Position numbers and translations under genes: made by a program
The notes under the pieces: model-generated
What the model was told of the DNA's origin: nothing
Database searches by the model: none
The model's input: only the letters and a program-made list of their open reading frames with translations
In this document: in pieces, positions 15,464 through 33,981 of the stretch
Layout of the letters: every line of letters starts with the position of its first letter
Position numbering within the stretch: the stretch's first letter is position 1
Origin: a virus
Lineage: Duplodnaviria > Heunggongvirae > Uroviricota > Caudoviricetes
Length of the DNA stretch: 33,981 nucleotides
Virus record (IMG/VR): IMGVR_UViG_2563366983_000010
Reading direction: 5' to 3' (one strand)

Positions 15464-16040
15464 GGATCACGTCGTTAATCTCAGTATGTTCACCGCTACG
15501 CAGCGTTGCCCCGAGGCGCAGGAAGTCCGGGAGCGCGGCGAGATCAATCTCTTCATCCAGCTGAAATTCCTGCTCCCACGTCACCGCCCACATGGTGACG
15601 CCCAGCCCGTCGAGGCTGGCGGAGTAAATGTTGTCTGCCCGCACATCAGCAGCCATGCGTTCAGCCCCCATGCCCCCGGTGGCATCCGACGACAACAGGC
15701 GTTTGATCACCTTCCCGGCCAGCACTTCACAGCGCACGTCGCGGGAGTACCCCCACGAATCCGTCGCCATGATGTAAGCCACCCAGGTAACCAGACCGGA
15801 CAGCCCGCCGCGCGGGTTGATATCCCGGACACGCAGGGCAGCTACCCGGATACAGCCGGTGCGACCGGACAGATAGCGTTTGACTTCCTCCGGGCTGTTG
15901 AACTGGCCGATGTGACGCTCCACCACGTCAGCCCGGTCAGGGGTTTTCCCCTGAAGTGCTGTTTTCAGCCAGGCCACAATGCGCTCTGCGGCCGCAACGG
16001 TGCTCCCCGGTGTGCGCAGTTCAGGGCGTTGTTCTGTCAT
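15429..16040 (-). CDS. Tail completion / virion protein (Mu gp37-like)
   Basis: 203 aa; position only. Confidence 0.5.
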   Translation of the reverse strand: MTEQRPELRTPGSTVAAAERIVAWLKTALQGKTPDRADVVERHIGQFNSPEEVKRYLSGRTGCIRVAALRVRDINPRGGLSGLVTWVAYIMATDSWGYSRDVRCEVLAGKVIKRLLSSDATGGMGAERMAADVRADNIYSASLDGLGVTMWAVTWEQEFQLDEEIDLAALPDFLRLGATLRSGEHTEINDVIHVRGDDGTETD

Positions 16041-16582
16041 GGCAGAACCTCCTTCCAGAAATGACTGATAACCTGTTGCAGCTCCTGCTGGTTGGCAGAA
16101 GACAGCCCCAGAAATTCACGTTGCGGAATGTTCATCATGCGGTTATGTGCGCCGACGGTCTGCCAGACCGGATATTTCAGCGCCCGCCCGAAACACTGCG
16201 AGATAAGCCGTTTGTGGGCGCTGACCGGCACACTGCCGGAAAAGCCGTCATTCATGATGCGGGCATAATCCAGCGGTGAACCGATACGCACCACGCGGTT
16301 TTCCACGATGTACTGGATACTCTCCAGCAGATGGCCTTCACCACGCAGCAGACTCTGGTTGCCGTGGCGGGTCTTTTTGTACCCGTCAGACCAGTCCGGC
16401 CAGCGTTCGCCACCCGGACTGGTTTTCTCATCAATGATGCGGCGGCGGGTCTGTGATTCCACCACCGCACCGATGCTCTCCAGCAGCTCTGCCTGCAATG
16501 AACCATCTGCCAGCTTTTCAACGGCACGGCGGATATCCTCCAGCCGCTGGTCACCGCTGACCTGTACAGAAATCCCCATCAC
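16037..16582 (-). CDS. Virion morphogenesis protein (Mu G-like)
   Basis: 181 aa; position only. Confidence 0.55.
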   Translation of the reverse strand: MMGISVQVSGDQRLEDIRRAVEKLADGSLQAELLESIGAVVESQTRRRIIDEKTSPGGERWPDWSDGYKKTRHGNQSLLRGEGHLLESIQYIVENRVVRIGSPLDYARIMNDGFSGSVPVSAHKRLISQCFGRALKYPVWQTVGAHNRMMNIPQREFLGLSSANQQELQQVISHFWKEVLP

Positions 16583-17398: not shown

Positions 17399-18301
17399 TT
17401 ATGCCGGGGTGGTGATGAACGGACTGACCACGATGTCCACATCCTTGTACCAGATGTTGGAATCGCCGCCGTTTACCAGCATGGCGTCAATGATGCGCTT
17501 CGCAGCCGCGCGATTTTTCGGTCCCACCACAAGGGTGGTCGGGCGGATGCCCAGCGGTTCACCGTTGGTGGCCTTCATACCCAGCAGCAGATTACTGGCG
17601 CTCTCGTAGTTCTCCGCTGTCAGTGCCGCACGGGAACCGACGGCGGTTTGCCAGAAGCCGAATCCTGCATTACAGCGACCGTCCACCCCGTACAGGAACT
17701 CGTTATTCTTGAAGGTGTGCTCGCTGTTCAGATCGTCCAGGGCTTCAAACTTAAAGGCGCGTCGCGTCTGCCAGATGATGGGTTTCAGTACCTGAGAATC
17801 ATCAATCAGAAACCACGGTTCCCCCTGGTCTGATGCCGGGGTGCCGACAACGTTGCTGTATGTGCCGTCGCCCAGCGGGTGGTCTTCATCAAAGAAGTTC
17901 TGACCGTCAAAACACAGGGTGTTAAACCCGGCACACAGCAGGGGGTAACACAGCTTGTCCGGGAACTCTGACGTCTGGCGGCCATAGCGTTCAGCGATAA
18001 TGCTGTACTGACCAATCTGATCGTCTTCAATGTGTTCGCGTTTAACGCGGATCGAACTTTCCCAGGTTTTGTTCGCAAGGGTGTAACCATAACCGTCCAG
18101 CGTTGCCATCTGACGGGCGCTGACCCATTCTTTAATCTCCGGTAAATCTTTCATCCAGCCGTAGGTATTGGAAGCGGACGAACTCGGGATTTCAGAGGCG
18201 ATGCGCTGCCACTGTGGGGTAACACCACTCAGACCACGGGTATAAGCGGCGCTCAGGCAGGTGGTCAGCGCGTGAAGGACTTCGGAAGTGACTGCTCCCA
18301 T
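17399..18301 (-). CDS. Major capsid protein (Mu T-like)
   Basis: 300 aa, immediately downstream of the protease/scaffold gene (ATGA overlap). Confidence 0.8.
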   Translation of the reverse strand: MGAVTSEVLHALTTCLSAAYTRGLSGVTPQWQRIASEIPSSSASNTYGWMKDLPEIKEWVSARQMATLDGYGYTLANKTWESSIRVKREHIEDDQIGQYSIIAERYGRQTSEFPDKLCYPLLCAGFNTLCFDGQNFFDEDHPLGDGTYSNVVGTPASDQGEPWFLIDDSQVLKPIIWQTRRAFKFEALDDLNSEHTFKNNEFLYGVDGRCNAGFGFWQTAVGSRAALTAENYESASNLLLGMKATNGEPLGIRPTTLVVGPKNRAAAKRIIDAMLVNGGDSNIWYKDVDIVVSPFITTPA

Positions 18302-19263
18302 CAGTTATTCTCCTGTTTCGGTTTAGCGGCGAGGAACTCTTCCCCGGTAATACCCATGCTGCGGCACATCGCCAGTTCGGCGTCGGTCAGTGTCTGCGCG
18401 GGTTTATCCTTGCCCTGGCTGGGCTTGTCGTTGTTCACCAGCGGCTGTGCACCTCTGGTGTATTCCGCAAACTGTTTGCGGCCTTCTTCCGTGCGGCAGG
18501 TGGCAAGGAACATGTCACGGTTTGCCGGGGCCACTTTTCCGGCTTCGATGGCCGCATCCACAAGCGCTTCTGCTTCCTTAGCTTCCAGTTGCTGAAGGCG
18601 TTGTTCTGCGGTTTCTGCACGGTTCAGTGCCAGATTGTGGGTTTCCACCGGCACAAACTTCGTCAGGTCAGGTGTCTGTGCGCGGTTCAGCGCCACCTGT
18701 TCGCTCTCCTGAAGTTGTTTAATGGCGGCCACGGTATCGTCCACCGTGGCGGATTCAGCCAGCCCAAGCAGGCCGGTGATTTGCACAGGTACTGTCATCG
18801 GGTTTTTCTCCGTATTCAGTGCAGGAAAATCCAGGTTAGGTTTGTTGGTCAGCCCGACGCTGGACAGGCGCGTCACCACACCCTCCGCGTCATGGAAAAA
18901 CGCCGGGCTGTAATAGCGATAGCGGCGCTCGCTCAGCATCCACCTGGCGGATTCACTCCAGACAACACGCCCTTCAATGATGCCGTTGTCCGTCACCCGC
19001 AGTTCTTCCACCCAGCCATACGCCGGGGCTTCATCACCGCGTTGCCCTTTAATTTCGGTGGCGTGTTCAATGTCCACCGGAATTTTGATGTCGGACGAGC
19101 GGGTGACCACCTCATGCGGATTGCGGTTAATCCACGTCCGGCCATCGCGCCCGGTGAACTCACCCGCAGGGACGAGTTCAAGCCATTCCGGCAGTTGAGC
19201 GGGTGTCAGCTCAGGGATGGGTTCTGGCAGGGAAAAACACAGCGCCAGCAGTTCCGGTTGCAT
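18301..19263 (-). CDS. Head maturation protease / scaffold (Mu I-like)
   Basis: 320 aa; first gene after the F-I intergenic region; ATG at 19261-19263 with GGAG RBS. Confidence 0.75.
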   Translation of the reverse strand: MQPELLALCFSLPEPIPELTPAQLPEWLELVPAGEFTGRDGRTWINRNPHEVVTRSSDIKIPVDIEHATEIKGQRGDEAPAYGWVEELRVTDNGIIEGRVVWSESARWMLSERRYRYYSPAFFHDAEGVVTRLSSVGLTNKPNLDFPALNTEKNPMTVPVQITGLLGLAESATVDDTVAAIKQLQESEQVALNRAQTPDLTKFVPVETHNLALNRAETAEQRLQQLEAKEAEALVDAAIEAGKVAPANRDMFLATCRTEEGRKQFAEYTRGAQPLVNNDKPSQGKDKPAQTLTDAELAMCRSMGITGEEFLAAKPKQENN

Positions 19264-19312
19264 GTCAGTCTCCGTCGTTTGGGGTTACCGACGGTCAGTA
19301 TGCGGAAGGCAG

Positions 19313-19338
19313 AAAAAAAGCCGGATTTACCGGCTTCA
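19313..19338 (-). terminator. Intrinsic-terminator-like hairpin plus U-run (GAAGCCGG-TAAAT-CCGGCTTTTTTT); copy 1 of a duplicated element
   Basis: Minus strand reads TGAAGCCGGTAAATCCGGCTTTTTTT, identical over 26 bp to 26879-26904. Confidence 0.5.
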
Positions 19339-19476
19339 CTGAAAACGGGAAAATACCCCCTTCAAAACCCCTTCAAAAACGCCACAGCATCTTCAAAAAC
19401 GTCAGAATGCACATTCACGCCATCAGAATAAAAAACGCGTTTCTGATGCGTTTCAGGGGGATTTGCGGCGGGAGGG

Positions 19477-20241
19477 TTACTCTCTGTCAAAACGGGCCTG
19501 TTTTGTCGCCAGCTGGCGCGCCAGCGCCTGCTCACGGTTTATGCCGGGATTGTAGTTCCAGCCCGGATCAATCCCTTCCGGCACCTCTTCCTCTTCGCCC
19601 GTGCGTTTGTTCACCCAGCGGACAGTTCTGATTTCCGGCGCTTCGGTGTGAATGGTGCCCTGTGCCGCCAGTTGCGCATATTCACCACGGCTGACCTGAC
19701 GGATGGTGCATTTGCAGCCCCAGCCGTTAGGGGCGAAATGTGTCAGCCAGAACGGATGATCAACCGGCAGACACAGACGTGCCCATTTCACATGCTCCGC
19801 CCGGTGCTCGCGGGATGGTCCCAGCTCGTAAATCAGATACGGCATGGCCCGCTTTGTCCGCTGGATGCGTTCCCACTGGCCCGCCGCGCGGGCGGTGCGC
19901 ATGTTGGTATCAAAAATCGTGCGGAGGCGGCGGTCGCTGCCCAGTTGCACGGTGCGGGTTTCGCCCGTCAGCGGATCATCCATCTCCTGTACGCCCCACC
20001 ATCCGCGTTTTATCAGCAGCGGTTGCAGCGCCTCCCGGAACTCGCTGAACGTCTGTCCGCTTTGCAGGGCGTCTTCCACAAGGGCTTTCACATCCGACAA
20101 CAAATCCAGTTGCAGCATTTTTGCCACGGTGAAGCTGTTCCGGTGTTCTTCCCGCCACACATCCCGGTAATCAAAACCGGGGCGCAGCTTCTTCGCCTTC
20201 AGCCACGCCAGCGCCTCTTTCGGGATGAGGGTTTCACGCAT
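19477..20241 (-). CDS. Head morphogenesis / minor head protein (Mu F-like)
   Basis: Start chosen at Met20 of ORF 19477..20298 (GGGGGA RBS, minimal overlap with the portal stop). Confidence 0.65.
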   Translation of the reverse strand: MRETLIPKEALAWLKAKKLRPGFDYRDVWREEHRNSFTVAKMLQLDLLSDVKALVEDALQSGQTFSEFREALQPLLIKRGWWGVQEMDDPLTGETRTVQLGSDRRLRTIFDTNMRTARAAGQWERIQRTKRAMPYLIYELGPSREHRAEHVKWARLCLPVDHPFWLTHFAPNGWGCKCTIRQVSRGEYAQLAAQGTIHTEAPEIRTVRWVNKRTGEEEEVPEGIDPGWNYNPGINREQALARQLATKQARFDRE

Positions 20242-21805
20242 GGCCGGTGTCCCCCAGCGCACGCGCCTTAAAGCACACCTCCGCCAGTTGCAGGGCAAAG
20301 TCGTCCGCGTTCAGCGTTTCCTGAAGCTCAGGCAGACGTTTCAGAAAGTCATCAAAACTGTCGCATTCCTGCGCCAGTGTCAGCACCGGGTTTGTGAACG
20401 CCTCGCCGGTTTTCTGCCAGTCACGCAGGGCATCATCCACCATCTGAGCCAGTTCGTCGGGGTGTTCCCGGTTCAGGGCGACGCGCTCGCGGTTCATCGC
20501 CATTTCACCTGACATTCCGGCAGAAACCGGATGCAGAACATCAGCCCCTTCGTCCGGTTCCGCCAGGCCGAACCGATCCCGCAGCTCCGATTCCTGAACC
20601 CGCATCCCCCGGTCAATCAGTGGCACCAGAGCATCAGTCAGCGCCTTCAGATCTTCGGCTTCACTGATACGCAGAACAACACGGGGATAGTGCGCCTGTG
20701 GCCCGTAGTTGGCCTCGATGTAGGGACGCACCAGATATTCATTCAGCGTGTTAGCCAGCTGTCGCGCGTCCCAGCGCACAATGTCCATGCGCACCTGATT
20801 GTGCACGTCCGCCTGTGAACGCGAACTGCCGTTATCTGTGGTCATGGTCTGCCCCAGTACGGCTTTACTGATTTGCGCATCGCACCATTCCGCCATTTCA
20901 CGGAACAGTGCGCCGCCGTTATTCCGGCTGGCGGTTTCCTTCATTTCCAGTTGCATGGACTGCGGAATGGCACACCCGGCATCCGAGGCAATGGAAGCAA
21001 TCGCATCAATCAGCACGCGGATTTGCTCCTCCGTGGCGTTGGGGCCGTATTTCCCCACTGTAACCGGAATGCCGAACTTTTCCGCAAATGCCCACCAGTC
21101 GCGCACGGTAAAGGATTTCAGCATGTACATCACCGCCACCAGACGGGCCAGACCGTTACGCAGCGGCAGACCGGATTTCAGGCGCGGCTGGTGAACAATG
21201 AATTTTCCCGGTGTCAGCGGTACGCCATCCACCGGTTCATCGTCAGTCAGCAGGCGGAACTGGCGCAGCGTGGTTTTTTCGGCTTTCAGAAAACGGGGAT
21301 CAACCCACTCATAATCACGGGGAATCCAGTGGTTTTTGTGGGTATTCCAGAGGATTTCACAGACCGCCACGCCTTTTCCCAGCCCGTCGAGCAAATCAAA
21401 CATCAGTTCGGGGATTTGCGGGGCTTCCATCAGTGCACGGATGGCGTCCGCCAGTTGCACGTCAGCATCGTCATCACTGGCGGCCACCACCACCGGTTCG
21501 ATACCCGCCACCGTCAGCTTGCGGGTGCGCAGCACCGAGGCGTAATGCAAATCACGTTCTTCCATCTCTTCGGCAAGGATAAAAAAATCACGCGTGATGC
21601 CGTCGGCGGCATTGCGCAGAATGCCTGCCAGCCTGCCGGGATTCAGCCCGGAAGCAATGCTGATGCCCGGCGAGGCCGAACGTACGCCAGCCTGACGCGG
21701 GCGGGCCTGTGCTTCATTGAGCGTCTCTTTTTTCAGGGTGTCGCCCTCACCGGTTGTCGGGTTCAGCAAATGACGAACATCCCCGGTCTGTTGTTTCAGG
21801 TTCAC
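20234..21805 (-). CDS. Portal protein (Mu H / gp29-like)
   Basis: 523 aa directly downstream of the terminase large subunit; apparent GTG start overlapping the terminase stop. Confidence 0.75.
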   Translation of the reverse strand: MNLKQQTGDVRHLLNPTTGEGDTLKKETLNEAQARPRQAGVRSASPGISIASGLNPGRLAGILRNAADGITRDFFILAEEMEERDLHYASVLRTRKLTVAGIEPVVVAASDDDADVQLADAIRALMEAPQIPELMFDLLDGLGKGVAVCEILWNTHKNHWIPRDYEWVDPRFLKAEKTTLRQFRLLTDDEPVDGVPLTPGKFIVHQPRLKSGLPLRNGLARLVAVMYMLKSFTVRDWWAFAEKFGIPVTVGKYGPNATEEQIRVLIDAIASIASDAGCAIPQSMQLEMKETASRNNGGALFREMAEWCDAQISKAVLGQTMTTDNGSSRSQADVHNQVRMDIVRWDARQLANTLNEYLVRPYIEANYGPQAHYPRVVLRISEAEDLKALTDALVPLIDRGMRVQESELRDRFGLAEPDEGADVLHPVSAGMSGEMAMNRERVALNREHPDELAQMVDDALRDWQKTGEAFTNPVLTLAQECDSFDDFLKRLPELQETLNADDFALQLAEVCFKARALGDTGHA

Positions 21806-23337
21806 AGTAAACCTCCCTCATTTTTCAGGCCGCGTGTCAGTTTCATCTGGCGGCGCGTGTTGCCTTCTTCCGGTTTCGCCGGGCGGTTCAGGCGGTGCAG
21901 CTCGTAACGGTGGCAGTCATCCTTGCTGGCAAGGAAGCCCAGGAAAATGGCCACAGCGGCATCGCCGTGACGCTTGCGGCCATCGCTACCTTTAGTACGG
22001 GCATCGTCAATGCCGGGAACACCACGCAGTAACTGAATGGCCCCGAGGTCATTGATCACGTCTTCATGCTTCGGAAGGATCAGCTCATCATCTTCAAACG
22101 CTGCACGGAAACGGGGCATGTTTTCGCGGTAGAACGCCACGGACAGCATCACCTGTTCCACCTCATCGCCGTACCGCTCCGCCGCCTGTTCTGCCAGATA
22201 CTGACCATTCCCCCGTGCATCCATTTTGATACCGTCACGACGGGGCAGACGATCGCAAAGCCAGAACAGCACCTGCTCCTGCTGTTTAAACGGCACATTG
22301 CCAAGCTCAACCAGGAACGGCACCTCGCGGGTGGTGTCATCGTTCACCGTCACAGGGGCCAGTACGGTCAGGTCCCCCGAACGCGCAAAGTCTTCCCCCA
22401 GACAGTGGCGCAGGTTCTTCGGGAGTTTTTCCAGCTCGGGGCGCACCACCGTTTCCAGCCATTCCCGGATATCTGCCCGGCGCTGGCTTTCCGTCAGTGC
22501 GTTAAATTCCGGTGTGCCGGTAAAGCGCAACACTTTCCCGGTGCCACGGGCCGCACGTTCACGCAGTGAGCGGGGGATATACGTGCCGCCGCCGTTTTTC
22601 GGGACGCAGTAGTATTCCTCCAGGGCGTCTTCGCGGGTGGCGGTATTTCTCAGCAGACCTTCTTTCCATTCCGCCTCGGCCTCCGGTGACCACACCATGC
22701 CGCGCACCTGACAGATACGCCGGTACAGCCCGTCATTGCAGGCATCATCCAGCGTGATGGTGTGAATACGGTAATCTTTTTTGCCTGCGCGGCTTTCCTG
22801 AATCAGCTGGTTAAACGGGTTGTCCACGCCGTCATGGGTGGAAATAAGGCGAACCTTACCGCCCCACGTGGTCAGTGGTGTGACCGCCTTGAGTACCTCA
22901 TCCAGTTGTTCATGAAACGCCGCTTCGTCGATGGTGACATTCCCCTGCATCCCGCGAATGTTGCCCGGATTACTGGACAGCGCCTTGACCTTAAATCCGC
23001 TGGCGAAGTACACGACGAACGTCAGAATGTCCTTGTCTTCGTCGGTGATCACTTCCTCGCGGATTTCTTCTGCTGCCGCATTAAACGCTTTCGCCCACAT
23101 CGCCACGGCGTCGATAAATTCGCGGGCCATCTCCTTATTCGAACCGATATAAAAGTGATCGCTCCCGCCGTTTTCCTTCTTCAGTGATGCGGTCAGTGCC
23201 GCATCTGCCGCTTCTGCCCAGGTTAAACCGGTACGGCGGGATTTCTCGGCGATTTTCAGTTTTGAATCATCCGCAACCCAGCGTTTCTGATACGGCAGCA
23301 GAACATCGGATTCACTGAACGTGTTCATCTGTGTCAT
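21802..23337 (-). CDS. Terminase large subunit (Mu gp28-like)
   Basis: 511 aa; size and position upstream of the portal gene. Confidence 0.8.
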   Translation of the reverse strand: MTQMNTFSESDVLLPYQKRWVADDSKLKIAEKSRRTGLTWAEAADAALTASLKKENGGSDHFYIGSNKEMAREFIDAVAMWAKAFNAAAEEIREEVITDEDKDILTFVVYFASGFKVKALSSNPGNIRGMQGNVTIDEAAFHEQLDEVLKAVTPLTTWGGKVRLISTHDGVDNPFNQLIQESRAGKKDYRIHTITLDDACNDGLYRRICQVRGMVWSPEAEAEWKEGLLRNTATREDALEEYYCVPKNGGGTYIPRSLRERAARGTGKVLRFTGTPEFNALTESQRRADIREWLETVVRPELEKLPKNLRHCLGEDFARSGDLTVLAPVTVNDDTTREVPFLVELGNVPFKQQEQVLFWLCDRLPRRDGIKMDARGNGQYLAEQAAERYGDEVEQVMLSVAFYRENMPRFRAAFEDDELILPKHEDVINDLGAIQLLRGVPGIDDARTKGSDGRKRHGDAAVAIFLGFLASKDDCHRYELHRLNRPAKPEEGNTRRQMKLTRGLKNEGGLL

Positions 23338-26235: not shown

Positions 26236-26823
26236 TCACCCCCGCGTGGTGGACGGCGCGTTGTCGATGATTTCCAGACAGGCGTCGGTCAGTTTTTCCA
26301 TGCGGTTAAACCAGCCATTCAGGTATTTGCCCTGGGCGGGTTTGGATTTGATGATTTCGGCATAAAAGCGGGAACGACGGACAATGCAGCGGGTCAGCAA
26401 CCAGTCCGGGGTGGACAGGCTCACGGCCTTACGGGTACGCGGGCCGATGATGCCGTCAGCATCCACATCAGTGGCTTCCTGCAAAATTTTGATAGCTTTT
26501 TTAACGCCATGCTGAACCGCCGCATCGAACACAAACATCGCCACGCCATCAGGCCACTGGTCACATCCGGCAGGCAGCCAGTAATCGCGCCAGTAAATCT
26601 GCGCAACCTGTTCGCGGGTTAAATCCTTAATGCGGGTGTCGGGTTTACCATCGCCGTTGACATCGGTTTTGCCGTCAATCACACCGTCGCGGCGGTCAGA
26701 AATGCCGTATTTGGTTTCGCCGCCACGGTCTGTGGGGTCATTGACATAGACGCCTTCGATATCAGGACGCAGAATAAAATTCAGCGCATGTTCAAAGGCC
26801 GGAGAGAATTTTTGATTTTCCAT
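26236..26823 (-). CDS. Endolysin, GH108-like lysozyme domain with C-terminal peptidoglycan-binding domain
   Basis: N-terminal EGVYVNDPTDRGGETKYGIS motif typical of glycoside hydrolase family 108; C-terminal DGIIGPRTRKAV motif typical of PG_binding_3. No signal peptide or SAR segment. Confidence 0.75.
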   Translation of the reverse strand: MENQKFSPAFEHALNFILRPDIEGVYVNDPTDRGGETKYGISDRRDGVIDGKTDVNGDGKPDTRIKDLTREQVAQIYWRDYWLPAGCDQWPDGVAMFVFDAAVQHGVKKAIKILQEATDVDADGIIGPRTRKAVSLSTPDWLLTRCIVRRSRFYAEIIKSKPAQGKYLNGWFNRMEKLTDACLEIIDNAPSTTRG

Positions 26824-26878
26824 AAAAGCACCTGTGAAGCAGAGTTAAACGTGGTCTGCTTCATAGTGCCGGAGGCAC

Positions 26879-26904
26879 AAAAAAAGCCGGATTTACCGGC
26901 TTCA
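26879..26904 (-). terminator. Intrinsic-terminator-like hairpin plus U-run; copy 2 of the duplicated element
   Basis: Identical 26 bp to 19313-19338; lies 20 nt after the stop of the 159-aa secreted-protein gene and 55 nt before the endolysin ATG. Confidence 0.55.
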
Positions 26905-26923
26905 TTGAATTAAGGGAAGATAA

Positions 26924-27403
26924 CTACTCATCTCCTTTGATGGAGCAATCTATTACCATATCGTTACCCATCTTGAGAAATTTGGTTTGCATGAGAAAAC
27001 CCTGTATCACGTCAGTTAACCCATACCCTTCAACTTTTGTAGCTGAAACTACCATGTCAATAATTCGTTTCTGCTGCTTCTCTGTTAGTTCACCAATTGC
27101 TGACTCTGCAACCCGCGAGCATGCTACAAAGGAAGACAACACACCTGAAGGATTGTTTTCAAAATCCTTTACAGTCGTCCTTGAGCTGACGACTTTATTA
27201 TTGATCGTAAATACCCCGAATTTGCTGTGAGCAGTTTCAGTTCCACCGTTCTTAATAGAATCGCCTCCCTTAAGAGGCATCCAGCTATTTAGTGCAATGA
27301 AATCTTTTTCTGTCAGACGTTTTTTGATGACATCTTCAGCTGGCAACTTTGCCGCATTAGCGCAAAATACGCTCAGTAAAAGTATAAGAGGAAAGTATTT
27401 CAT
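26924..27403 (-). CDS. Secreted/periplasmic protein with cleavable signal peptide, unknown function (159 aa)
   Basis: N-terminus MKYFPLILLLSVFCANA-AKLP is a classic Sec signal peptide. ATG overlaps the stop of the Mor-family gene (ATGA); AT-rich relative to neighbours; followed by the terminator hairpin. Confidence 0.6.
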   Translation of the reverse strand: MKYFPLILLLSVFCANAAKLPAEDVIKKRLTEKDFIALNSWMPLKGGDSIKNGGTETAHSKFGVFTINNKVVSSRTTVKDFENNPSGVLSSFVACSRVAESAIGELTEKQQKRIIDMVVSATKVEGYGLTDVIQGFLMQTKFLKMGNDMVIDCSIKGDE

Positions 27404-27810
27404 GACTCATCCTTAAACAGTTGCATTTGATATTTTCCACGCTCCAGCCTTCGCATTCTTTTGATAGCTTGATATACCGTTTTGTATGTCACTTTGTAAC
27501 GCTGCACCAGTTCCGCTACGTTTTTCCCATCAAAATCACGCCAGATGCGCATGTCTCTGATAAGATTTTCCAGTATTTTCCCTTTAGGAACATATACCTG
27601 AATCCCACCGATATGATTACAAATCGCCACTACCAACTCAAGGGAATAGACCGGGTTAACCCCAAGCCTTATCAGTTCCTGTCGCAACAGAGCATTCAGC
27701 TCTGAAAGTAGCGCCGGATAAACATATTTTTCCTGATAATCGTGAAGATATTCCAGAACGGTGTCGTCCCGGAAGTCTTCGAATAAATCCTGCTCTTTCA
27801 TCTGTTTCAT
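27400..27810 (-). CDS. mor: Mor/C-family transcription activator (middle/late gene activator)
   Basis: 136 aa with C-terminal helix-turn-helix (NVAELVQRYKVTYKTVYQAIKRMRRL); ATGA-coupled to gemA as mor is in Mu. Whether it acts as Mor, C, or both cannot be decided from sequence. Confidence 0.7.
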   Translation of the reverse strand: MKQMKEQDLFEDFRDDTVLEYLHDYQEKYVYPALLSELNALLRQELIRLGVNPVYSLELVVAICNHIGGIQVYVPKGKILENLIRDMRIWRDFDGKNVAELVQRYKVTYKTVYQAIKRMRRLERGKYQMQLFKDES

Positions 27811-30923: not shown

Positions 30924-31862
30924 TTACGTGCGCAGCAGGGTTGAAATATCAACGTCCAGGTCTAATTCACGGAAAGCCTGACGCAGATAATTTTCATTAA
31001 CACGATCGCCTTTACCGTAGGCTGTCATGGCCGCAAGGCGCAGCGAGTGATTCAGGATACGAAGCGCACCTGGTTTTTGTGCAATCTGTTGTAATAATTC
31101 CCGCTCGTTTTCGCCGGTAATTTGCCAGGCATCCGCAATGGCTTTTACATCGTCAATTTTGGTTTTATTGATTGCCGTCCGTTTGGCAATACGGGAAAAC
31201 AGGCGGGCAAATTCAACCGTTCTGTTACCACCGGTCATGTTTGAATAAACGCGGTGATTCCCCATCAGAACAAGACCAATACGGGCGGACTCCTGTAACA
31301 GGCGGAGTTCTTCCAGAACCTCAGCGCCAAGATGATCAGCTTCGTCGATAATGACCAGCCCCTGCGTACCTTCAAGACGGCGTCTCAAAGCGCGGGAGAG
31401 TGGCCCCTTACGGCGCGGTGCGTCATTCATTCCCAGTTCATAAGCCAGTTCAGTCAGGCATTCCAGAACACTGGCACAGGATGGGGTAATGGTGATCATC
31501 CAGACATTGTTATTGGTGCGACGAAATTCGCGGGCCGCTTCAGTTTTTCCCACTCCTGGATTACCACAGATAACAGAAATACTTTCAGTCAGGCTGGCAA
31601 AACGCATACTTGTCCAGATTTGGCGGACCGTTCTGGTTTCCACAAAACGCGGGGGTTCTGGCAGTTCTGCGGCGCGGTGATAGTTCTCCAGCCAGCGTTC
31701 AAGAGACTGCGCGACACGTTCATTGTCGCCGTTGTACTTGTCATTCACGAATGCGCTTAACGTTCCTGCGGCCACCCCAGACTCGCGGGCGATTTGTGCA
31801 TAAGTTGTTTTTTCATTTTCTACAAGCGTGCGCAGTCCTGCACGAATATCGGAAATATTCAT
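30924..31862 (-). CDS. B: Transposition ATPase / target DNA activator B (MuB, AAA+)
   Basis: 312 aa; [17 protein letters not shown]-terminus with HTH, Walker A (GNPGVGKTE) and Walker B ([10 protein letters not shown]); closely matches Mu B as recalled. Confidence 0.9.
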
Positions 31863-31899: not shown

Positions 31900-33981
31900 T
31901 TAAATGGCTTTTTTACGTCTGTTCTGTTCCAGAATATCCAGTGAATTATTCAGATATTCGTCGCGGTCGCTTTCATATTCATCGTCCGGTTCATCTGCCA
32001 GCACTGGCACGACTTTCTCCACTGGTCTGTAGACGTTGCTGAACAACCCGTTGCCTGTAACAGGAGCTGGCAGTGTTCGGGTATTCTCTGCCTCGGCCAG
32101 TCTGATTTTTTCCTCTCCGCGCTGACGCATCCCTTTGATACGCTGCTGGCGCTGATGGTATTCCGCAGTGACCGGGAATGCCTGCTGTTTATTGCCATCC
32201 CAGACAGCCTCACAGATATAGGAACCGTCCATGCGGCGGATAATTACTTTTGTTGCATCATGAATATCGTAATTCACCAGCACCTTATTACCGTGCTCAT
32301 ATTCCAGGTCAGTTGAATAATAAATATTATTAAACAGCCTGACTTCACAGCGGTTGACTGTACGTTCAATCTGGGGCATAAACATTTCACGCAGTTCAAG
32401 GTCGGACAACCATTCGATTTCCGTCGCTTCTTTTTCCAGTTTGTAGCGTCGGAACTGCGCCGGGGTGTAATGTTCACCGTTTCCACGTAGTGGTAGCGAA
32501 CTATGCGGACGGTTGTTGTACCATTCCACACCAGCTTCAATAGCAGCAATAAGTTCATTCCATGACGGCAGGTTTTTTAAAGCCTGCCGTTGTTTTTCAG
32601 TCAGCTCCCGTCCTTTGTTTGCCGCATTTGTTGCAGATATCAGAGCCTTTGTCGTCCGGCGAACCGTTCCACGGTCGGCACCGGTGCCATAATACGTGGC
32701 AAACTGGCGTGATATGCGCATAGCCAGAGTACGGTTCAGACGCTCTATAATCCCTCGCCCTTGCGGGTTTTCCGGTATACCAAGACGGTGATCAATTCCA
32801 AGACGCGGTAAGACACCCGTAATATCAGCATCGAACGTGTTATTGGTTTCACCGCCGCCATTATCTGAATAATAGATATACGGTTTGCCGTGATTTTTTA
32901 TTCCGTGGCGTAACGCATCAGCAACAGCAACCACACTTTCAGAAAGTGCCAGACTCCAGCCCACAATAAAGCGGCAACTGCCGTCCATGATAAAGGTGAC
33001 TTCTGGGGAAAATGGATTGCCGTGATCAGGATGTGCCACTTTCATCTTCATGCCGTGACCATCACCAATCCAGGCATAATTTACCGGTAAAGATAACCAG
33101 TCCCGACGCACGAAGCCTTCATACTGCCGGAACTCGCTGCCTGTAACGCGCCCACGTTGTTTCACAACAACCGGGAGTTTGTTCATGGCATAGCAAACCT
33201 GATCATACGACGGCAGTGCTGCACACATCGCAGGATTGTCCTGATGCACTTCATACCATTCCGCAGCAAAATCATCATAAGCCTCTCGTATTCCGCACCC
33301 GTTCGGACGGCGGTAAAAGCGAAGAAACTCTGGTAACCAGCGAATCTGGTCTGGTTTTATGGGCTGACGTTTGCCTGGTGCCAGCATGATCAGACGTTCA
33401 GCCGGAGTGGTTGCTTTTTTAAAATCAGCAATCCAGCGTTTCAGTGATATTTCACTAAGGGAGCGCAAAGAACCTTTTTTCGCGTTCGCAGTTGCAACGG
33501 TTTCCACCAGGTGTGCCGGTAACTCACCGTTTTGAGCCTGTTTCACAAACTCACGGATAGCGGCGGCCTGGCTGATTCCTGGTAGTTCACAAACGCGCAA
33601 AACTTCGCTGACAATCGCAATCCGGGCATCCGCTGTTTCTTTTTGCGTAGCGGTTAACGTTCCGAGTTTCTGCTCAAACAGCGCAGGACATTTGCGGTAA
33701 ACCGCAATTTTGCCGTCTTCACGTTTTTTTAAACGCGGAGATTCAGGTTCTTTTGCCTCAGTTGCTGGCTGATTCATTAACGCCTTAATCTGGCGAGCCT
33801 GTAACGCCTTACGCGCCACATCAGGCAAACAGTCGACATGGAACTCAAAAGCCTTTGTCCCTGCACGCTTACGCATCATTCCTTCTGATTCGCCGCAATA
33901 ACGGCGCAATGCTTCCCGAATTCCTTTAATTGTTTTTGGTAATCCTGGTACACCGACCAGCTCTTTGGCGAGAACAAACAT
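31900..33981 (-). CDS. A: DDE transposase A (MuA family), apparently complete
   Basis: 693 aa. N-terminal GLPKT motif as in MuA domain I; WIGDGHG (DDE Asp region); C-terminal DDEYESDRDEYLNNSLDILEQNRRKKAI matches the MuA C-terminal tail. ATG at 33979-33981 is the last codon of the window. Confidence 0.85.
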   Translation of the reverse strand: MFVLAKELVGVPGLPKTIKGIREALRRYCGESEGMMRKRAGTKAFEFHVDCLPDVARKALQARQIKALMNQPATEAKEPESPRLKKREDGKIAVYRKCPALFEQKLGTLTATQKETADARIAIVSEVLRVCELPGISQAAAIREFVKQAQNGELPAHLVETVATANAKKGSLRSLSEISLKRWIADFKKATTPAERLIMLAPGKRQPIKPDQIRWLPEFLRFYRRPNGCGIREAYDDFAAEWYEVHQDNPAMCAALPSYDQVCYAMNKLPVVVKQRGRVTGSEFRQYEGFVRRDWLSLPVNYAWIGDGHGMKMKVAHPDHGNPFSPEVTFIMDGSCRFIVGWSLALSESVVAVADALRHGIKNHGKPYIYYSDNGGGETNNTFDADITGVLPRLGIDHRLGIPENPQGRGIIERLNRTLAMRISRQFATYYGTGADRGTVRRTTKALISATNAANKGRELTEKQRQALKNLPSWNELIAAIEAGVEWYNNRPHSSLPLRGNGEHYTPAQFRRYKLEKEATEIEWLSDLELREMFMPQIERTVNRCEVRLFNNIYYSTDLEYEHGNKVLVNYDIHDATKVIIRRMDGSYICEAVWDGNKQQAFPVTAEYHQRQQRIKGMRQRGEEKIRLAEAENTRTLPAPVTGNGLFSNVYRPVEKVVPVLADEPDDEYESDRDEYLNNSLDILEQNRRKKAI

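Follow-up and report, generated by a model that had tools for sequence, protein, structure and literature searches.

Genes F and I of a Mu-like prophage of E. coli are separated by a 213 bp gap, which contains three closely spaced direct repeats: which function may be assigned to this sequence? The gap lies near the middle of the prophage, within the whole stretch of 33,981 nucleotides that was analyzed (the window), and an initial annotation had proposed it as the counterpart of the strong gyrase site (SGS) of phage Mu. The explanation favored here is that the gap probably hosts two modules: a homologue of the Mu SGS, taking up the F-proximal two-thirds (~19350-19479), and a separate late promoter module of the P_I type on the I side.

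The element in the window is identified by Pfam assignments as a Mu-like prophage. Its genes are all located on the minus strand, in the same order as in Mu: MuA, MuB, Mor/C-type activator, lysis, terminase, portal, F, I, T. The relevant features are:

31900-33981, minus strand: MuA-type transposase (Pfam)
30924-31862, minus strand: MuB (Pfam)
27400-27810, minus strand: Mor/C-family late transcriptional activator gene (phrog_532 'late transcriptional activator', E = 4.8e-39)
26236-26823, minus strand: GH108 lysis gene (lys)
21802-23337, minus strand: terminase (Pfam)
20234-21805, minus strand: Mu portal (Pfam)
19477-20298, minus strand: gene F, Mu F-like minor head protein (Phage_Mu_F PF04233, E = 8e-14), adjoining the gap upstream
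19264-19476, minus strand: F-I intergenic gap, 213 bp (ORFs and Pfam; alignment to the Mu G-I gap)
18301-19263, minus strand: gene I, Mu-like head protease/scaffold (Mu-like_Pro PF10123, E = 1.4e-44), adjoining the gap downstream
17399-18301, minus strand: major head protein T (Pfam)
16037-16582: G-like Phage_tail_S gene

The extent of the gap, between the Phage_Mu_F and Mu-like_Pro ORFs, is the same as initially annotated. The true start of gene F may be at ~20241, as in the RefSeq annotation of the copy found in strain KFu019. The ORF adjoining lys (26924-27403) has no Pfam match, and the activator is encoded by the next ORF upstream.

Positions 1-1926 of the window correspond to the eptB region of the E. 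coli chromosome, with 100% identity to many strains; the right end of the prophage is therefore placed at ~1927. The F-I region was found in ~49 of 5,426 complete E. coli genomes, with 95-100% identity. In strain KFu019, the gap and its surroundings (451 bp) match the window at 100% identity; the prophage of this strain, 33,567 bp long, features Mu-type ends, flanked by the 5-bp duplication ATGGT. The two elements differ elsewhere: the transposase of the window and the Mu-type MuA of the KFu019 prophage share only 24% identity, and the right end of the window prophage carries two copies of the repeat AAATTATTTGATAC, differing from the KFu019 end repeats. Judging from these comparisons, the window prophage is a mosaic relative of the KFu019 one. 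Transposase-binding sites, considered as a possible identity for the repeats of the gap, were rejected, because the identical gap occurs along with unrelated transposases and ends. A blastn search against an annotated phage collection returned weak coding matches only, and scanning a genome collection with a single I protein produced one relative only, from Brenneria.

The repeats are formed by CTTCAAAA, found at 19360, 19371 and 19391, at distances of 11 and 20 bp; the second and third copies are exact CTTCAAAAAC. Coordinates, copies and spacings were all correct in the initial annotation; the repeat units, however, are longer than those given there, as CCCCTTCAAAA is present twice in tandem and CTTCAAAAACGYCA twice. 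On the coding strand, the repeats read CGTTTTTGAAG (19401-19391), CGTTTTTGAAG (19381-19371) and GGTTTTGAAG (19369-19360). Their significance was evaluated on 5000 dinucleotide-preserving shuffles of the gap: an 8-mer is present at least three times in 2.9% of them, and an exact 10-mer twice in 4.6%. The A/T periodicity at 10-11 bp ranks 82 among 33,917 positions. Taken on their own, these statistics, all obtained within the window, are weak; the non-random nature of the repeats is rather shown by the comparison with other phages.

Homology to the gyrase site of phage Mu

The Mu record places a gyrase cut site in the G-I gap, at 17879/80. The 133-bp fragment of the Mu SGS, which served for Topo-Seq validation (PMC6379681), maps to Mu 17812-17944, and the 4-bp stagger corresponds to AATC, 17876-17879, in the coordinate convention of the same paper. 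[quoted passage not shown]

Read on the minus strand, the window gap can be aligned with the G-I gap of Mu. The alignment is ungapped from the cleavage tetranucleotide through the right arm (Mu, AATCAGCCGCACAGATTTTTTAAAACGCGCCACGGGATTTTTAAACCGGTATTTAACGGTGTA; window, GAATGTGCATTCTGACGTTTTTGAAGATGCTGTGGCGTTTTTGAAGGGGTTTTGAAGGGGGTA): starting from the cut, 34 out of 63 positions are identical, 30 out of 49 in the right arm, and the T-tracts occupy equal positions. Because of this ungapped alignment, the three repeats are identified with the three T-tract units of the SGS right arm, the CTTCAAAA copies being their reading on the other strand:

19355-19401, minus strand: SGS right arm, three phased T-tract repeats (alignments, signature scans)

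Alignment with the Mu SGS had been indicated in the initial annotation as a way to check its proposal, and the repeats do fall, in register, on the Mu right arm. The core next to the cut is identical to Mu at only 4 of 14 positions, and homology to the Mu SGS therefore rests on the right arm; the left arm likewise shows little identity.

A Mu-type prophage from E. coli SE11 represents an intermediate. Its G, I and T genes equal those of Mu in length, its G, I and left flank are Mu-like, and its G-I gap is 74.8% identical to that of Mu; in the right arm, 46 nt are 95.7% identical to window positions 19354-19399.

The gap was compared in an alignment of seven phages (Mu, SE11, the window, a Brenneria prophage, Klebsiella phage Kp4866-3 and two IMG/VR groups), whose I proteins are 29-61% identical. 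Two blocks are conserved, corresponding to the right arm and to the promoter. Right-arm bases invariant in all seven phages are G-TTTTT-AA---G--TT-AA-G--GT; the conserved 26-nt signature is located at 19380-19355 in the window. When IMG/VR was scanned with this signature, RTTTTTRAASNNGNNTTNAASGNNGT, at least 120 matching stretches were found. An I homologue, with identity down to ~31%, is located 118-340 nt downstream, on the same strand, in 94 of the 120 matches listed. Many Mu-like phages, with only 31-60% identity in their I proteins, carry the signature upstream of this gene.

Since the IMG/VR set had been picked by the motif itself, loci were also gathered by the I protein alone. Of the 49 non-redundant upstream regions so obtained, 22 match the signature with four mismatches or fewer, as compared with 1 out of 49 on the reverse strand and 0 out of 49 in coding sequence; in the 14 regions where I identity reaches 56% or more, it is always present with two mismatches at most. 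The idea that the repeats arose by chance, as low-complexity sequence of an AT-rich spacer, could appeal to the frequency at which a triple 8-mer arises in shuffled gaps, but the recurrence of the signature upstream of I, both in the viral contigs and in the I-selected loci, reduces its probability almost to nothing.

Among 19 close relatives, 35% of the sites are variable in the left arm and 31% in the core, against 17-18% in flanking coding sequence, while repeats 2 and 3 vary at 2 of 31 sites. This distribution of sequence variation matches what would be expected from the dispensable left arm and essential right arm of Mu.

Gyrase motif scores and position in the element

The gap was also evaluated for its resemblance to the gyrase motif from E. 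coli. The matrix used is an approximate reconstruction from published Topo-Seq data, not the published matrix itself: it was trained by symmetric ridge regression on 269 cleavage sites with published scores (PMC6379681 supplement), with sequence from W3110, 420-570 kb, and reached a cross-validated r of ~0.82 without count-based prior. Coordinate registration was checked by the quinolone signature, G at position 0 and C at +3. Two simpler procedures were discarded. Consensus-only proxies, based on base or S/W matches to the published 133-bp consensus, were dropped because the Mu positive control failed, the SGS ranking just 68-210 out of 36,585; with a count-only matrix from the 269 sites, the Mu SGS was outside the ten top-scoring positions, and ridge regression was used instead.

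The Mu SGS, absent from the training set, is found by the rebuilt matrix with position 0 at Mu 17876, the exact mapped register. Its rank was 3-4 out of 36,588 in the first fits, and about 7th or lower with a consensus constraint, with a bootstrap median of 16.5: it thus stands from 3rd to ~17th in Mu, as compared with 1st in the published analysis, where its score is 14.3. In the window, position 0 at 19413 ranks 1 in one model and 2 in the other, out of 33,852 positions, scoring 12.5-12.7, against 9.8-10.3 for the Mu SGS in the same models. Over 200 bootstrap refits, the window site ranks 1 in 61.5% and within the first five in 96%, and is always in the top 0.1%; the same site also outscores all others in the 42-kb KFu019 locus. 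Of the score, 6.7 comes from the right arm (background SD 1.8), 5.5 from the left arm and 2.2 from the core, with a background SD of 1.5-1.8 per part; since about half of the score comes from the right arm, this test is partly dependent on homology. The corresponding predicted features are:

19350-19479, minus strand: predicted 130-bp gyrase-bound segment, motif -63 to +66 (rebuilt matrix)
19413-19416, minus strand: predicted 4-bp staggered cleavage tetranucleotide GAAT, context GGCGT^GAAT^GTGC (matrix and register)

The predicted segment is bounded by the F stop codon on one side and by the end of the repeats on the other, and nearly coincides with the interval initially annotated. The predicted cut falls 36 nt upstream of the signature start (19380); likewise, AATC in Mu is 36 nt from the Mu signature start, 17912. 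When 106 non-redundant signature contexts were scored, the best matrix site was within 1 nt of -36 in 81 of them, though the cores differ by lineage.

Optimal SGS function has been reported to need a central location (PMC10052514, PMC3820752). The gap had been initially placed near the prophage midpoint, and this is borne out by the KFu019 copy, whose ends are set by the ATGGT duplication: here 16,038 of the 33,567 bp separate the site from the left end, a relative position of 0.478. The Mu site is located at 0.487 (17,878/36,717). For the window prophage, position could only be estimated, because the left end lies beyond position 33981: if ~1.3 kb is allowed for the repressor, ner and the end sequence past this point, the site is at ~0.476.

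Right-arm homology, matrix rank, signature conservation and central location, taken together, provide computational support for the initial reading of the gap as a counterpart of the Mu SGS. Strength and function are a different matter. Among the SGS substitutes tested by Oram and Pato (2004), only the site from the Mu-like prophage of E. coli O157 Sakai promoted Mu replication, as summarized in PMC10052514, and for this reason neither property of the window site can be assumed from homology and position. The gap might then contain an inherited relic, homologous to the Mu site but weak, inactive or not needed in this prophage, as could be suspected from the failure, in the same account, of several candidate sites from Mu-like prophages to replace the Mu SGS, and from the divergence of core and left arm from Mu. 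Against such a relic stand the nearly invariant right arm, next to genes that vary at 17-18% of their sites, and a predicted motif score above that of the Mu SGS in the same model; moreover, the Mu-like gene content is intact, and so are the KFu019 ends, with their target-site duplication. A relic is accordingly regarded as very unlikely.

The putative late promoter module and the inverted repeat

In the I-proximal part of the gap, the sequence AAGCCGG-TAAAT-CCGGCTT (19336-19318) forms a perfect dyad, after which come a T7 run and GCATACTGAC. A similar module is found upstream of the lysis gene:

19291-19340, minus strand: putative P_I-type late promoter module (aligns to the Mu P_I region)
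26857-26906, minus strand: second dyad/promoter copy (dyad 26902-26884), in the gap upstream of lys

An exact 21-mer recurs at 26883-26903, inside a similar stretch of ~45 nt. Only these two copies of the dyad module were found in the window, and none for P_P or P_mom equivalents; the T-tract repeats, unlike the dyad, are not duplicated at the lys gap. A -10-like hexamer, CATACT (19302-19297), has 4 matches out of 6, and is aligned with CAAACT of Mu P_I. Scanning the gap region with the sigma-70 consensus revealed no full promoter, as expected if the promoter is activator-dependent.

Late promoters of Mu, dependent on C (P_lys, P_I, P_P, P_mom), have a -10 hexamer, lack a -35 one, and contain a dyad to which C binds (PMC2582627). 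The window module resembles them in its -10-like hexamer, in the apparent lack of a -35 hexamer and in a dyad that would overlap the -35 region; as in Mu, copies lie upstream of both the lysis gene and gene I, and a Mor/C-family activator is encoded upstream. TAAATCC, within the dyad, is located within 1 nt of the position of the ATAATCC half-site in Mu P_lys, relative to the -10 hexamer. Differences are also evident: the window dyad is a perfect 7+5+7 palindrome followed by T7, a terminator-like arrangement, and its center would lie at about -37 from the inferred start, while a value of -43.5 has been reported for Mu C sites. Among the 19 close relatives, the dyad shows no variation. Alignment with Mu P_I, the copy at the lys gap, the encoded Mor/C-family activator and the invariance of the dyad together led to reading the module as a late promoter equivalent to P_I. 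The product of 27400-27810 is presumed to be the activator acting on both dyad modules.

Behavior as a promoter only had been indicated in the initial annotation as evidence against a gyrase site. A putative late promoter is indeed present, but it cannot serve to exclude gyrase: promoter behavior is compatible with a gyrase site, because in Mu both share the G-I gap.

The most serious alternative is that the repeats themselves belong to the promoter, as an upstream regulatory element (curved DNA, or sites for the late activator, IHF, Fis or other proteins) timing or boosting the expression of I and the head genes, with no role for gyrase. They are located ~60-105 nt upstream of the putative -10 hexamer, i.e. 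from about -70 to -115 from the inferred start; direct repeats with a spacing of one or two turns of the helix are commonly seen in protein-binding arrays, and exact-base conservation in seven phages seems stricter than bendability needs. On the other hand, the homologous bases of Mu constitute the right arm of the experimentally defined SGS, and the gyrase matrix peaks here in the register of Mu. The likely activator site, moreover, is the separate dyad, copied at the lys gap without the repeats. Deletion of the Mu SGS leaves transcription and protein production normal and delays replication (PMC10052514); the delay seen is of ~100 minutes. A regulatory element could coexist with a gyrase role, but Mu genetics argue against it as the main one, and the alternative in its full form is considered unlikely.

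The gap could also act mainly as RNA, where hairpins formed by the dyad and by the inverted repeat found nearer to F would terminate or attenuate the late transcript running from the lysis gene through F, the repeats being incidental U-rich sequence. The inverted repeat is located as initially annotated:

19421-19428 and 19441-19448: 8-bp inverted repeat, CATCAGAA/TTCTGATG, inside the predicted left arm

On the mRNA strand, dyad and U7 have the form of a canonical intrinsic terminator, with an 8-bp stem and a 5-nt loop (-13.8 kcal/mol; hairpin z = -3.0), and in Mu a hairpin and T-run directly follow gene C. In relatives with ~60% I identity, however, the left half and TTAATCC are retained and both the second dyad arm and the T-run have disappeared: because of this unequal decay, the dyad reads better as a protein site than as a hairpin. 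A terminator role may be secondary, or the dyad may serve both as protein-binding site and as terminator.

As to the inverted repeat, perfect 8-bp ones arise in 5.7% of the 5000 gap shuffles, and its RNA fold is no better than that of shuffled sequence (z = -1.27). Position 19446, in one of its arms, varies among close relatives without compensation, and the repeat is missing from the more distant relatives of the seven-phage alignment. As a hairpin or terminator it was therefore rejected, being neither significant nor conserved, and not followed by a U-run. While its coordinates were exact in the initial annotation, its standing as a feature in its own right is not supported: it lies in the poorly conserved left arm, with no sign of a function of its own. 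The RNA reading, in addition, leaves the conservation of the repeats unexplained, and no Rfam family matches the gap, where only sub-threshold, chance similarities were scored (sroD, 22 bits versus a gathering score of 50); an RNA role as the main one is very unlikely.

Proposed mechanism and relation to known systems

The preferred reading, an SGS homologue next to a late promoter, would operate as follows. [quoted passage not shown] Wrapping could be favored by the three T-tract/GAAG repeats: with their distances of 20 and 11 bp, a geometry directly visible in the gap, they would expose bendable A/T stretches on one helix face. Processive supercoiling from the center of the prophage may then, as proposed for Mu, extrude the prophage as a loop; its ends would thereby come into proximity for transpososome assembly, resulting in faster replicative transposition after induction. 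The 75 bp closest to I would provide a late promoter, probably driven by the Mor/C-family activator through the dyad overlapping the -35 region.

With the Mu SGS, the window site shares the central location upstream of gene I, the three phased T-tracts of the right arm, the 36-nt distance from cut to signature, a high gyrase-motif score and the late promoter next to it in the same gap. It differs in the gene upstream of the gap (F here, G in Mu), in the repeat unit (TTTTGAAG here, TTTTAAAC in Mu) and in core and left arm, largely unrelated in sequence. Other candidate SGSs, those of Mu-like prophages tested by Oram and Pato (2004), for instance in E. coli O157:H7 Sakai, are likewise central and intergenic, and were proposed from position and similarity to the Mu SGS, as summarized in PMC10052514 and PMC3820752. 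The O157-type site was not among the BLAST matches to either the window gap or the Mu gap, and is therefore considered as a different sequence lineage. The E. coli Topo-Seq motif (Sutormin et al. 2018, PMC6379681) has the same general organization, extending over 130 bp with a central cleavage region, two arms and a G/C-A/T periodicity of ~10.7 bp; it is, however, degenerate and shared by thousands of ordinary chromosomal sites, while the phage element adds a base-specific signature in one arm.

This signature may be approximately described as RTTTTTRAAS-NN-G-NN-TT-N-AAS-G-NN-GT, with consensus GCGTTTTTAAACGGGTTTTAAACGCGGT. It occurs in phages of many hosts, high-GC ones included, where I proteins are only 31-45% identical. 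The breadth of right-arm conservation, and its strictness at the base level, may exceed what is documented in the papers cited here. It is conceivable, if rather doubtful, that the right arm represents, beyond bendable DNA, a base-specific conserved signature, marking the center of transposable phages. In that case, its strict conservation would point to the GyrA C-terminal domain recognizing the sequence specifically, or else to a further conserved factor that binds the repeats. The TTTTGAAG variant of the window seems to result from the exchange of a module with the Mu-type prophage of SE11.

A central SGS-like gap is an expected feature of Mu-like phages, not a new type of element, and the present understanding of how the SGS works is left unchanged by these results. 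What is supported, by sequence comparison, is the identification of the site as the SGS homologue of an uncharacterized lineage of E. coli Mu-like prophages, which supplies an annotation for an otherwise unannotated gap of this family. The 26-nt signature locates gene I and the center of Mu-like prophages in viral contigs with few false matches, and may be used in their annotation; it could also help to test how general a central gyrase site is among transposable phages, which has been treated as an open question (PMC5977238). Finally, the site represents a natural SGS variant, where a right arm homologous to that of Mu is combined with a different core and left arm, with a predicted score higher than that of Mu: as such, it could help to separate the contribution of the right arm from that of the core to processive supercoiling.

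Mosaic early region and prophage ends

The head region and the F-I gap, the interval between the Mu F-like and I-like head genes, are 99.9-100% identical in the window and in the prophage at the E. coli KFu019 locus (L003). The transposase, instead, encoded at 31900-33981 of the window, shares only 24% identity with the Mu-type MuA of KFu019 (L003 33835-35826). Because of this disparity the window prophage is, on sequence comparison, a mosaic, with early region and ends swapped. At the right end, two features are distinguished:

Window 1-1926: host chromosome, eptB region (100% identity to many E. coli strains)
Window from ~1927 (~1927-2010): prophage right end

The latter contains two exact copies of AAATTATTTGATAC, at 1938 and 1995. 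In KFu019, whose prophage is similar in other respects, the right end is of Mu type, and these repeats do not resemble it.

Further inward, the gap upstream of com/mom (window 2879-3015, minus strand) contains a GATC-rich palindrome, CGATCGATAGCATCATATCGATCG. It is reminiscent of the region that precedes mom in Mu, where Dam methylation and OxyR exert control.

A dyad module in two copies

A module of ~45 nt occurs twice in the window:

Window 19291-19340, minus strand: copy 1, upstream of gene I
Window 26857-26906, minus strand: copy 2, upstream of the GH108 lysis gene

Its parts are a perfect dyad, AAGCCGGTAAATCCGGCTT, a run of seven T and a GC-rich, conserved segment that includes a -10-like hexamer. 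In form, the module is like a Mor/C-type late promoter and equally like an intrinsic terminator. A sub-threshold match to the Rfam family sroD (window 19312-19400, minus strand; 22.1 bits, gathering threshold 50, E = 0.09) was put down to chance, with the terminator-like hairpin as its source.

An ORF with no assigned function lies between the late activator and lysis genes; Pfam and NCBIfam gave no match for it, while phrog_38744 did:

Window 26924-27403, minus strand: 159-aa ORF

Arms of the predicted gyrase site and their relatives

The F-I gap holds the predicted homologue of the strong gyrase site (SGS) of phage Mu. The following loci are compared below with its two arms, the I-proximal right arm and the F-side left arm, or with their surroundings in Mu:

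Window 16037-16582: G-like virion morphogenesis gene (Phage_tail_S)
Mu (L005) 205-225: a pair of TTCAAA(A) units in phase
KFu019 prophage (L003 ~36930-36955, 205-225 bp in from the left end): a similar pair of TTCAAA(A) units
E. coli SE11 (L004, NC_011415) 5879-6079: hybrid SGS of a Mu-type prophage

In Mu, G sits between F and I, whereas the G-like gene of the window is downstream of T. In the left arm, CATCAGAAACGCGT (window 19435-19448) resembles CATCAGAAAACGCGT at the 3' end of Mu G, and may be what is left of a G gene since lost.

The TTCAAA(A) pairs, CTTCAAAAAACGTTCAAAACC in Mu and CTTCAAAAACGCTTCAAACCC in KFu019, are located outside the window, ~205 bp inward of the left end, with a spacing of 11 bp. 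They are similar to the right-arm repeats, but opposite in orientation; the gyrase matrix, an approximate motif model, gave no high score in this region (4.9-5.6).

In the SE11 prophage, whose G, I and T genes equal those of Mu in length, the left arm and core of the SGS are Mu-like (GATAAAATCAC...), while the right arm matches the TTTTGAAG type of the window almost exactly. The joining of a Mu-like left arm and core to a window-type right arm suggests that modules have been exchanged at this site.
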